Shown here: piece by piece, positions 8,671 to 10,461 of the stretch
How positions within the stretch are numbered: position 1 is the stretch's first letter
Layout of the letters: each line of letters starts with the position of its first letter
Assembly (NCBI GenBank): GCA_963677925.2
Contig: CAXXYH010000003.1
Span: forward strand, 876,621-900,620
Source of the DNA: Spirochaetia bacterium
GTDB taxonomy: Bacteria; Spirochaetota; Spirochaetia; UBA9216
Reading direction: 5' to 3'
DNA: 24,000 nt
Notes under the pieces: model-generated
What the model was told of the DNA's origin: nothing
The model's input: the letters and a program-made list of their open reading frames with translations, nothing else
Databases searched by the model: none
Made by a program: the position numbers and the translations under genes

Positions 8671-8979
8671 TCAGCAGCAGGAAGATTTTCCGCCTTCACC
8701 GCTGCAGGAGGGACCGCAGTCGCAGGAGGGGTCTCCGCCTTTAATCATGCTGTTAAATACAGCTTCGGCACAGCCTACTCCCTTATCGACCGAAAGAGCC
8801 TTGAACGAACAGTTGAGGACACAGGCACCGCATTCCATACAGGAATCTGAATCATCAATCCGGACCTTTCTTTCATCCTCTGCAAAAACCGCATGTGGAC
8901 AGACCTCTATGCACATAAAACATCCGGTGCACTTCTGCAAATCGATTTTGATAGTTGCTGTATTCCTTAGATATTTCAT
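8671..8979 (-). CDS. hgcB: Mercury-methylation ferredoxin HgcB (2x[4Fe-4S])
   Basis: 102 aa. Two CX2CX2CX3CP-type clusters (CTGCFMCIEVCP and CMECGACVLNC). Conserved GVGCA after the ferredoxin core and a cysteine-rich tail ending in the vicinal pair CC, as in described HgcB. The start overlaps the hgcA stop (ATGA). Confidence 0.85.
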   Translation of the reverse strand: MKYLRNTATIKIDLQKCTGCFMCIEVCPHAVFAEDERKVRIDDSDSCMECGACVLNCSFKALSVDKGVGCAEAVFNSMIKGGDPSCDCGPSCSGEGGKSSCC

Positions 8980-9971
8980 AAAACCCCCGCTTTCTGCAGC
9001 AGTATCGGAATAATGCCCATAACCAGGGATAAACCGCCAAGAGAAATCTGAACAGGAACCGCAATTTTCATTTCCTTTTTAACGCCTGACAATGATGTAT
9101 ACGTTGATGAACCTGTAAACCACATACCGATAAAGGATGAACCGGCAGCCGTCAGTATAATATTCTGCATGATCGCAGGAACGCTCAGCTTTGAAGGAAA
9201 AAAACCGAAAACTACCAGAGAAAGGATAAATCCGGATACCGCCCCTTTTACAGAAAAAGCTCTTCCGGGCAGGACAGGCAGCAGCAGTGGAGTAAGGACG
9301 GCACCTGAGATTACAGTTACAAGAGCCGGTATGATAACTGCCGAAGGATTAATACCTGTAACCCCCTTGGCCGCAGCTTCTCGAATAAGCACAATTACTG
9401 CTGCTGCAAGAAATATCTTCCAGCTCTGTATCAGCTGCAGCGGTACCAGTTCAGCCCGTTCCGATAAGGTGAACTTTTTAAGACGCATATTCGGGTCAGC
9501 CTTTAAACCATTATCAAGGTATTCCGGAAGATCCGCTGCGGCTACAGGCCCGAAGAAAACCCGAAAGCCGGTTGCACGCTGAACAGCAACAGCCTTCACC
9601 CCCGGAGCACCGAGCTGTGGCACTACAAGTTTTTTATGTTTCACAAAATCTTTCAAGCCGGTTATCTGAACCCTTTGTATTAACTCTTCGGTTCCGAAGG
9701 TCCCTTTCCCTGCAGCACACCAGACATTGACTCCCATCGTATCAAGAACAAGAATCCATGCTGCCCTCTCTTTTAATTTTTTCCTAAGAATATCAAGGGT
9801 AACTTTAAGATTGGCGGTTACCAGTACAGGCGAAGTCTCATCCGGTTTATTAAGAGCATACAGCCCGGGCTTAACCTTAAGTTTCATTCGTCCGATGCCT
9901 ATACGGTATTTGATTCTATCGATGATATCTCCCGCAGTTATTTCACTGCTGATTTTAATTATTTCAGGCAT
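8976..9971 (-). CDS. hgcA: Mercury-methylation corrinoid protein HgcA
   Basis: 331 aa. The N-terminal corrinoid-binding domain carries the diagnostic cap-helix motif (LVLDTMGVNVWCAAGKGTFGTEELI), flanked by GIGRMKLKVKPGLYA, SPVLVTANLKV and VPQLGAPGV. The C-terminal half has about five hydrophobic helices. AGGAG lies 6 nt before the ATG. Confidence 0.92.
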   Translation of the reverse strand: MPEIIKISSEITAGDIIDRIKYRIGIGRMKLKVKPGLYALNKPDETSPVLVTANLKVTLDILRKKLKERAAWILVLDTMGVNVWCAAGKGTFGTEELIQRVQITGLKDFVKHKKLVVPQLGAPGVKAVAVQRATGFRVFFGPVAAADLPEYLDNGLKADPNMRLKKFTLSERAELVPLQLIQSWKIFLAAAVIVLIREAAAKGVTGINPSAVIIPALVTVISGAVLTPLLLPVLPGRAFSVKGAVSGFILSLVVFGFFPSKLSVPAIMQNIILTAAGSSFIGMWFTGSSTYTSLSGVKKEMKIAVPVQISLGGLSLVMGIIPILLQKAGVL

Positions 9972-10423
9972 TTACAGCTCCTGCTGATTTCAGCAGACTC
10001 AAAGGCATCACAAAGCGTAGTGACGGCTTTTATAACAGTATTTAATTTATCCGGTGCTATCTTCTCAAGTACCGGCATGTAAAATTCGTCGCATTGACTG
10101 TTCAGCCCATGAAGGAAGGCTCTGCCCTCATCACTTAGAGAAACCGTACTTGTTCTCCTGTCATGGAGGGATTCATTTCTTAGAAGCCAGTTTTTCTTTA
10201 CAAGCGCATCAACAGTTCTTGAAACCACCGATTTATCAACTCCAAGATAATCAACAATATCCGAAATTGTAATGTCACCTGCCTCTTCAACCCTCAGAAG
10301 AATGTGACATTCGTTGAAGGTTACCCCGCAGCAGACTGAATTGCTTTTCAGATTCACCGCGAGAAAACGTTCGAGTCGTCTCAAATCGTGCCTGAAAGCT
10401 CTTATATCATAATTTGTTTCCAT
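9959..10423 (-). CDS. MarR-family transcriptional regulator, cysteine-rich, first gene of the hgcAB operon
   Basis: wHTH and wing ISDIVDYLGVDKSVVSRTVDALVKKNWLLRNESLHDRRTSTVSLSDEGRAF. Seven cysteines, including SVCCGVTFNEC and a C-terminal CKC. The stop overlaps the hgcA start by 13 nt. The ATG at 10423 gives 154 aa; an alternative TTG at 10459 gives 166 aa. Neither has a clear SD. Confidence 0.82.
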   Translation of the reverse strand: METNYDIRAFRHDLRRLERFLAVNLKSNSVCCGVTFNECHILLRVEEAGDITISDIVDYLGVDKSVVSRTVDALVKKNWLLRNESLHDRRTSTVSLSDEGRAFLHGLNSQCDEFYMPVLEKIAPDKLNTVIKAVTTLCDAFESAEISRSCKCLK

Positions 10424-10461
10424 GGATTTAATATAACTACTTTTAGTTGCTATTGTCAACT

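Follow-up and report, generated by a model that had tools for sequence, protein, structure and literature searches.

A cysteine-rich MarR-family regulator gene directly upstream of hgcAB in a Spirochaetia-like bacterium: a likely autoregulated repressor-hgcAB operon

How the expression of the mercury-methylation genes hgcA and hgcB is controlled, and what the native purpose of these genes is, are open questions in mercury biogeochemistry. Levels of hgcAB transcripts predict methylation poorly, and the only regulator type studied so far is an ArsR-like protein of Pseudodesulfovibrio. This protein (ArsR2, PF01022) is co-transcribed with hgcAB (Goni-Urriza 2020; Gionfriddo 2022/2023, bioRxiv 10.1101/2022.10.17.512643), homologues of ArsR2 have been reported only in Desulfovibrionaceae, and in the ArsR-type system of Pseudodesulfovibrio mercurii ND132 the transcription of hgcAB responds to arsenic and to S-adenosylhomocysteine (SAH). 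The question of hgcAB control is raised again by a stretch of 24,000 nucleotides (nt) of a Spirochaetia bacterium (assembly GCA_963677925.2, contig CAXXYH010000003.1, positions 876,621 to 900,620), hereafter called the window, in which a gene encoding a MarR-family regulator lies immediately ahead of hgcA and hgcB.

Three consecutive open reading frames (ORFs) are found on the minus strand, at 9959..10459 (166 amino acids (aa) if read from a TTG), 8976..9971 (331 aa) and 8671..8979 (102 aa). With the start of the first of them revised as explained below, the following features were identified:

9959..10423, minus strand: MarR-family regulator gene, 154 aa (Pfam MarR, AlphaFold2 and Foldseek, subfamily signature, start-codon analysis)
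8976..9971, minus strand: hgcA, corrinoid protein of 331 aa (NF040863, cap-helix motif, C-terminal membrane domain)
8671..8979, minus strand: hgcB, ferredoxin of 102 aa with two [4Fe-4S] motifs and a C-terminal CC (NF040864, motifs)
9978..9982, minus strand: Shine-Dalgarno sequence AGGAG for hgcA, within the 3' end of the regulator gene and 6 nt ahead of the hgcA ATG (direct reading)

The regulator gene, with its stop codon TAA at 9961-9959, and hgcA, with its ATG at 9971-9969, overlap by 13 nt, and the stop codon of hgcA and the start codon of hgcB share an ATGA at 8979-8976. Both overlaps had been given in a preliminary description made from the sequence alone, and direct reading of the coordinates agrees with them; the compact three-gene layout which that description had proposed is likewise upheld by curated hidden Markov models (HMMs) and by comparison with other loci. 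The best explanation of the locus, which we consider likely as a whole, is that the three genes form a compact operon on the chromosome of a Spirochaetia-like bacterium, and that this operon is an autoregulated repressor-hgcAB unit with a thiol-based sensor.

The regulator is a MarR-type protein, as had been supposed. Indeed, it scores 51 bits against the Pfam MarR family (PF01047, gathering score 24.6) and gives no match to the ArsR/SmtB family HTH_5 (PF01022) at E<=0.01; its AlphaFold2 model (pLDDT 91.3) has the canonical MarR fold of six helices and a beta wing, and Foldseek matches this model to YusO (1s3j, TM 0.77/0.82) as well as to the E. coli MarR-DNA complex, AdcR and ZitR. Among the NCBIfam equivalogs, none comes near its cut-off, the model of the AdcR family (NF038251) giving 20.7 bits against a cut-off of 175. 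Because there is no PF01022 match and the predicted fold is the six-helix MarR fold, this protein represents a different solution from the ArsR-like regulator of ND132, and the contrast that had been drawn with the regulator of the model strains stands.

The cysteines (Cys) of the regulator are located in a CCGVTFNECH motif at residues 31-40 (nt 10333-10304), at C111 and in a CKC motif at residues 150-152 (nt 9976-9968). The AlphaFold2 model places C31 and C32 in the alpha1-alpha2 loop and C39 in the first helical turn of alpha2, and the CxC belongs to the tail that follows alpha6. An exhaustive HMMER search for relatives yielded 363 representative clusters with E<=1e-10, the majority of which align along most of their sequence, and the following signature was recognised for the subfamily: FRxxLRxLER, then (C)CCG[VI][TS]xx[QE]CHxLLE (in which Q is usual), then a C-terminal CC or CxC. 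Conservation in an alignment of 152 sequences is high for C31 (144), C39 (147) and H40 (137) and lower for C152 (118) and C32 (111); C31, C32, C39 and H40 occur together in 194 of the 224 members, and 137 of the 224 carry the C-terminal CC or CxC in addition. Judged by its sequence, the regulator is therefore not a generic MarR protein but a member of a distinct Cys-rich MarR subfamily, which is defined in this work. The structure searches returned only generic MarR proteins, with no solved structure that has the Cys motif or that belongs to a close relative of the regulator. Two distant matches with a tandem double-MarR architecture (P0048 and P0146) are devoid of the Cys motif and were not counted as members. 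Domain fusions occur within the subfamily (L091:4001-5002; P0248; P0132); these include a MarR-rhodanese fusion of 333 aa, with hgcA and hgcB downstream, and a fusion of 320 aa to a C_GCAxxG_C_C 'putative redox-active protein' domain.

When metagenomes were scanned with the subfamily alignment, a relative turned out to be encoded in at least 550 stretches, and gene order was examined in the best 80, which are those most similar to the regulator. Of the 63 loci that have at least 300 nt of downstream sequence, 62 encode HgcA immediately after the regulator gene and on its strand (local HgcA HMM), and the N-terminus of HgcA is visible in seven further, shorter loci. The same regulator-hgcA order was met in independent look-ups, namely in a JGI contig, behind the MarR-rhodanese fusion, in Candidatus Wallbacteria GCA_041441465.1 and in two more contigs. 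The junctions are tight: in the 63 loci, the regulator gene and hgcA overlap in 27 cases and are separated by gaps of 0-30 nt in 25, the largest gap being 79 nt. Furthermore, pairwise identities among the MarR proteins are correlated with those among the HgcA proteins (Spearman 0.66; Mantel r 0.91, a value reached by 0 of 2000 permutations). Within this sample of the best 80 of at least 550, members of the subfamily thus appear to be almost always encoded directly upstream of hgcAB. Because the loci range from 30 to 71% in GC content and the sources named are metagenome-assembled genomes (MAGs) of Spirochaetes, Wallbacteria and Syntrophus, the regulator-hgcAB unit is, as far as these sequences tell, either old or mobile across phyla.

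The closest locus is that of the Spirochaetia MAG OZ223269.1 (L001), with 86% identity in HgcA and full synteny. Among ten hgcA loci of species-representative genomes, the Cys-rich MarR gene lies upstream of hgcA in both spirochaete loci, this one and L004, in which the Cys motif reads CCGVNLMQCH. Two others of the ten have an ArsR-like gene at this place and one has an AbrB-like gene; a divergently oriented upstream ORF, TrmB-like by eye, is found in two archaeal hgcA loci, and in the remaining loci no regulator gene is evident. The AbrB/SpoVT-like protein encoded upstream of hgcA in a Methanocorpusculum MAG (L007:4567-4878) has an N-terminal Cys-rich stretch, CGCSCGTGC, and because of this stretch the archaeal AbrB-type alternative may also be thiol-based.

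The main exception, which is the one clear case among the 63 loci, is a member (L021:3920-5821) that precedes the genes of an ArsN2 acetyltransferase (155.9 bits, cut-off 125) and of an ArsP_1 permease. A second exception (L096:2501-5489, GCA_964551445.1) concerns a divergent member, P0023, with the motif CCGVSLTHCY, a C-terminal CSC and operator-like palindromes upstream; it is followed by two small proteins and an FGE-sulfatase-domain protein, with no hgcA within the 5.5 kb examined. In another locus (L094:2379-4699), the MarR-hgcA pair is followed on the opposite strand by genes for an HMA-domain metallochaperone and a heavy-metal P-type ATPase, and no hgcB was called between them.

The features identified upstream of the regulator gene are the following:

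10430..10459, minus strand: sigma-70-type promoter, TTGACA, 18 nt, TATATT; best promoter-like site in 8100-10700 (11/12)
10462..10476, no strand assigned: distal operator-like palindrome, GTTGTTAAAAACAAC (gene-strand reading); its 5' end lies 53 nt upstream of the ATG; 10/12
10446..10460, no strand assigned: proximal operator-like palindrome, GTTGACAATAGCAAC; at -37, covering the -35 hexamer; 9/12 (3 mismatches)

The upstream regions of the family share a palindrome of 15 base pairs (bp), GTTGYAnnnTRCAAC, which is often tandem with a spacing of 16 bp. It is present at 10/12 or better in 47 of the 75 distinct upstream regions, whereas shuffled sequences average 1.0 and reach 5 at most, and coding controls give 0 of 74. 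In the window, the distal copy is a perfect 6+3+6 inverted repeat, and the proximal copy is identical in the syntenic locus L001. The register of -53 and -37 with 16-bp spacing recurs in other loci (L034, L037, L038, L059, L082), and sites at -35 to -37 were found in L012, L013, L021, L030, L037, L038, L070, L072 and L082; the operator of L021, the locus of the ArsN2 and ArsP_1 genes, is perfect (12/12).

In the mechanism that we propose, the MarR protein, a dimeric winged-helix protein, would bind the two tandem 15-bp palindromes, one of which lies over the -35 box of a strong sigma-70-type promoter, and the bound dimer would repress its own leaderless mRNA and hence hgcA and hgcB, which would be translated from the same transcript by means of the internal AGGAG and the overlapping stop and start codons. 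A putative thiol site would be composed of two Cys of the alpha1-alpha2 loop (C31 and C32), of C39 and H40 where alpha2 starts, and of the CxC near the C-terminus, that is, where MarR proteins usually bind their effectors; when this site is occupied or modified, repression would be relieved or modulated. Genes of arsenic type recur around the family: an arsC gene lies next to hgcB in the window, 12 of 83 family loci have arsC-like genes, and 6 have ArsP_1-like permeases. These links, together with the ArsN2/ArsP exception, suggest a thiophilic metal(loid) as the effector. The effector is most likely a compound such as As(III), methylarsenite or Hg(II), given the recurrence of arsC, the ArsP_1-like permeases, the ArsN2 and ArsP genes of L021, the HMA protein and P-type ATPase of L094, and the arsenic-responsive system of ArsR type.

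Several points weigh against the autoregulated operon with a thiol-based sensor, or against parts of it. Three or four Cys with a His would equally suit a structural zinc (Zn) site or an iron-sulfur (Fe-S) cluster, and the C-terminal Cys pair is presumed to lie near the N-terminal triad. The effector could either release or promote DNA binding; in AdcR and ZitR, which are metal-binding MarR proteins, the metal acts as a co-repressor. The palindromes of the window are degenerate, and matches with at most 3 mismatches number 20 in the window against 22.6 expected, which is not significant alone; because the matches within the window are at chance level, the assignment of its operator is a comparative one, based on position and on the other loci. 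Nor does the sequence mark the 3' end of the transcript: no intrinsic terminator was found after hgcB (terminator-like matches being at chance level, 4 against 2.7 expected) and an arsC gene converges on hgcB with a gap of 2 nt. Finally, the 80 loci surveyed are the most query-like, so that linkage may be weaker among the remaining relatives (at least 470), and two members, those of L021 and L096, head other genes.

Oxidation or persulfidation of thiols is the main alternative to a metal(loid) as the signal. In this explanation, the operon and its repressor would be as proposed and the Cys cluster would switch in response to redox state or sulfur species, through a disulfide, sulfenate or persulfide, and would tie the expression of HgcAB, with its oxygen-sensitive corrinoid and Fe-S centres, to reducing, sulfidic conditions. 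Many MarR-family proteins, such as OhrR, MgrA/SarZ and MexR, sense redox changes through thiols; the sequence and fold matches of the regulator include SarZ, MexR and E. coli MarR; and the carriers, judged by the sources of their contigs, are anaerobes of sediments, peat and digesters. The fusions to rhodanese-like and C_GCAxxG_C_C domains point in the same direction, but the rhodanese fusion shows an Asp in the presumed catalytic loop, as read by eye and without alignment to a rhodanese profile. Moreover, the known redox-sensing MarR proteins use one or two Cys and not a conserved CC...CH with a further CC, and the recurrent neighbours of ars type and the ArsN2/ArsP exception point to metalloids. 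We regard a redox switch as the less probable signal.

It is somewhat less probable again that the Cys and His residues hold a structural or cofactor metal, either Zn(II) as in AdcR and ZitR or an Fe-S cluster, and that the true effector is the state of this cofactor or a small organic molecule bound in the pocket, for instance SAH or a one-carbon or corrinoid-related metabolite. AdcR and ZitR are structural neighbours of the regulator; they share its MarR fold and bind their metal through residues of the alpha1-alpha2 loop, of the beginning of alpha2 and of alpha5 (5jls, 6fi9). These ligands (C30, E41/H42 and E107/H108/H112, of which C30 and H42 are named in PDB titles) occupy the same regions of the fold as C31/C32, C39/H40 and N108/C111/D112 of the window protein, whose four Cys and one His are a typical ligand set for Zn or for an Fe-S cluster. 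The response of the ArsR-like regulator of ND132 to SAH, besides arsenic, would also fit. AdcR and ZitR have other regulons, and their metal is a co-repressor. Against a cofactor of this kind, their ligands are rich in His and Glu, whereas the window protein is rich in Cys and its ligand chemistry would be all-thiolate; the score against the AdcR-family model, given above, is also far below the cut-off. In addition, an obligatory cluster of four Cys is made less likely by the variable occurrence of C32 and of the C-terminal pair.

Returning to a metal(loid) effector, a broader proposal can be made, which we put forward as a tentative one: the Cys-rich MarR subfamily would be the principal dedicated sensor-regulator of hgcAB outside Desulfovibrionaceae, and it would bind a thiophilic metal(loid), for instance As(III), methylarsenite or Hg(II), through C31, C32, C39, H40 and the C-terminal pair and then release the operator that covers the -35 box. 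If this were true, hgcAB would be wired to metal(loid) stress across many phyla by a second, independently recruited regulator family, the idea of a native role of HgcAB in metal(loid) handling would be strengthened, and a defined protein and DNA site would be available for testing it.

The preliminary description had placed the 5' limit of the regulator gene at 10459, but this limit was not sustained: the TTG at 10459 belongs to the -35 hexamer, its first T being the first base of TTGACA, and the start shared with homologues is the ATG at 10423. The -10 hexamer ends 6 nt ahead of this ATG, which corresponds to a leaderless geometry, and no Shine-Dalgarno sequence was seen ahead of the ATG at 10423 or of the TTG at 10459. 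The same geometry from promoter to ATG was found in 24 of the 75 distinct family upstream regions, against 2.9 in shuffled sequences; a Shine-Dalgarno sequence is absent from 23 of these 24 and is present instead in a further 36 family upstream regions. The promoter region is 93% identical to that of L001. In public gene calls, P0001 starts at the ATG (154 aa) and P0002 three codons further upstream. The Cys motif begins at residue 31 when counted from the ATG at 10423 and at residue 43 when counted from the TTG, and among 204 homologues its median distance from the N-terminus is 31, with 82% at residues 27-35 and 8% at residue 41 or later. Because the TTG lies in the -35 box, and in view of the public gene calls and of the distance of the Cys motif in homologues, the regulator most likely starts at the ATG at 10423, 36 nt downstream of the TTG, and has 154 aa. 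The distance between the -10 box and the ATG suggests that its mRNA would be leaderless. A regulator of 166 aa translated from the TTG on a leadered mRNA is improbable: the frame is open from this codon and the same upstream frame is kept open in L001, but the codon would coincide with the start of the -35 hexamer of the best promoter of the region, with no Shine-Dalgarno sequence before it, and both the public calls, at or near the ATG, and the position of the Cys motif in homologues speak for the shorter protein.

The identity of the two downstream genes was established with curated models. HgcA is a membrane-anchored corrinoid protein in which the Cys of the cap helix ligates cobalt and from which a methyl group is passed to Hg(II); HgcB is a ferredoxin with two [4Fe-4S] clusters that re-reduces the corrinoid, and its C-terminal Cys pair is thought to handle mercury. 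The preliminary description had recognised this pair from its motifs and had proposed a search with curated HgcA and HgcB HMMs; this search was run, and both proteins score above their cut-offs. Indeed, (i) HgcA reaches 387.9 bits (E 3.5e-116) against NCBIfam NF040863 (HgcA_corrinoid, cut-off 275) and covers profile positions 1-320 of 325, and (ii) HgcB reaches 112.7 bits against NF040864 (HgcB_ferredoxin, cut-off 99). In contrast, HgcA remains below the cut-offs of the HgcAB_like fusion model NF043039, which describes a non-methylating paralogue (186.7 bits, cut-off 285; two separate ORFs are present here), and of the model of the corrinoid iron-sulfur protein (CFeSP)/acetyl-CoA decarbonylase-synthase gamma subunit (71.6 bits, cut-off 306). 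The translation and the hydropathy profile also agree with what had been read from the sequence: the cap-helix motif NVWCAAGK occupies residues 82-89 (nt 9728-9705), with the Cys at position 85, and is followed by GTF, and hydrophobic segments (Kyte-Doolittle >=1.5) at residues 175-268 and 302-331 indicate a multi-helix C-terminal membrane domain. Likewise, the translation of hgcB has the two [4Fe-4S] motifs that had been noted, of the form CX2CX2CX3C, at C17-C27 (CTGCFMCIEVC) and C47-C57 (CMECGACVLNC), together with Cys70 and the terminal CC at residues 101-102. A PDB search returned no solved HgcA or HgcB structure and, for HgcB, only generic ferredoxin domains; the closest solved relative of HgcA is the large subunit of CFeSP, of which the corrinoid-binding domain alone aligns (E 4e-9) and in which the aligned cap-helix position is without a Cys.

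That the pair is a non-methylating paralogue of the CFeSP-like or HgcAB-like fusion type, or that the regulator is adjacent incidentally and controls other genes, is very improbable: Pfam alone recognises only the CdhD corrinoid domain in HgcA, and no activity data were found for any spirochaete carrier in the literature searched, but both proteins exceed their equivalog cut-offs and HgcA stays below those of the fusion and CFeSP models, the cap-helix Cys of HgcA and the C-terminal CC of HgcB are present, and the genes overlap and are linked in 62 of 63 loci.

The hgcAB pair marks the organism as a probable mercury methylator, a result which is routine by itself. The hgcAB genes of the confirmed methylators ND132 and Geobacter sulfurreducens, reportedly described by Parks and co-workers in 2013, are separate and adjacent as in the window, encode a HgcA with N(V/I)WCA(A/G)GK including the Cys and with a membrane domain, and a HgcB with two [4Fe-4S] motifs and a CC; the window proteins, which pass both NCBIfam equivalog cut-offs, are of the same kind. 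The differences are that the host is Spirochaetia-like, that hgcA and hgcB overlap each other and the regulator gene, and that methylation is predicted here from the genes.

Like ArsR2, the regulator of the window is a small winged-helix protein and a presumed repressor, whose gene directly precedes hgcA in the same orientation; it is likewise associated with genes of arsenic type and is probably a thiol-based sensor as well. It differs in its six-helix MarR fold with no PF01022 match, in its Cys signature and in its operator, and homologues of ArsR2 have been reported only from Desulfovibrionaceae whereas the MarR subfamily spans 30-71% GC and Spirochaetes, Wallbacteria and Syntrophus. MarR-family genes have been noted upstream of hgcA in two isolates (Zhang et al. 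2023, PMC10349881), and an unnamed 'putative transcriptional regulator' has been found to precede hgcAB in 112 genomes, with transcripts detected together with those of hgcAB in permafrost metatranscriptomes (McDaniel et al. 2020, PMC7438021); on account of these two reports, the arrangement of a MarR gene before hgcA is not new. Both regulators have the same position relative to hgcAB, and that of Zhang et al. has the same family name, but no Cys signature, operator, promoter or exclusivity of linkage was described for them. Compared by description only, they likely belong to the same Cys-rich subfamily; the regulator of McDaniel et al. and the MarR genes of Dethiobacter and Geobacter daltonii were not tied to it. 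In the literature searched, no description was found of the Cys signature, of the operator or of the near-exclusive linkage to hgcAB, and these features of the subfamily appear to be undescribed.

The window hence holds a well-preserved example of a second type of hgcAB regulator, which appears to be much more widespread than the first. This type, which can be recognised by its protein signature and has a candidate operator and a simple promoter, offers a concrete handle on the switching of hgcAB and a testable system. When methylators are annotated in metagenomes, a MarR signature encoded just ahead of hgcA could be used as an extra genomic marker, and the loci give independent support to the recurring link between hgcAB and genes of arsenic type.

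Such a gene is also present next to hgcB in the window:

8228..8668, plus strand: arsC neighbour, thioredoxin-type arsenate reductase of the low-molecular-weight-phosphatase family (PF01451, TIGR02691)

Its product scores 72.3 bits against PF01451 and 162.1 bits against TIGR02691, slightly below the cut-off of 174.3, and its translation shows a CX5R loop and a C83/C90 pair. Control of arsC by the MarR regulator was considered and rejected: arsC has a promoter-like site of its own at 8182-8211, and no operator-like site was found ahead of it (8116-8227). For these two reasons, arsC is treated as a separate transcription unit, which it probably is. The genes arsC (plus strand) and hgcB (minus strand) are convergent, with stop codons 2 nt apart (8666-8673); with this gap and no terminator, their transcripts must overlap or end within each other's genes. 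This convergence may cause transcriptional interference. A small GC-rich hairpin followed by GGGTTTTATG (8987-9002, minus strand) is located exactly at the hgcA/hgcB junction; it is terminator-like, at chance level, and could modulate the translation of hgcB or be nothing.

The flanks of the locus are of housekeeping type and include serS, pncB, a neuB-like gene, proS, aroK, aroC, genes for a lyase of the fumarase/aspartase class and for a hexokinase-family kinase, and lacI. GC content gives no sign of a genomic island in the window, and neither riboswitches or other RNA elements nor tRNAs, searched as island markers with Rfam and ARAGORN, were found in the whole window. Two ADP-ribosylglycohydrolase genes, an NrtR-type Nudix/winged-helix regulator, a GGDEF protein, a DUF1152 protein and a histone-deacetylase-family gene are encoded at 17521-23901 (minus strand) and 11826-13265; this cluster, not far from pncB, may form a regulon related to NAD and ADP-ribose. 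No Pfam match at E<=1e-5 was obtained for the ORFs at 16390-16890 (plus strand, 166 aa) and 16946-17665 (minus strand, 239 aa). The latter shares about 145 nt with the beginning of the adjacent ADP-ribosylglycohydrolase ORF, and one of the two starts is therefore probably placed too far upstream.

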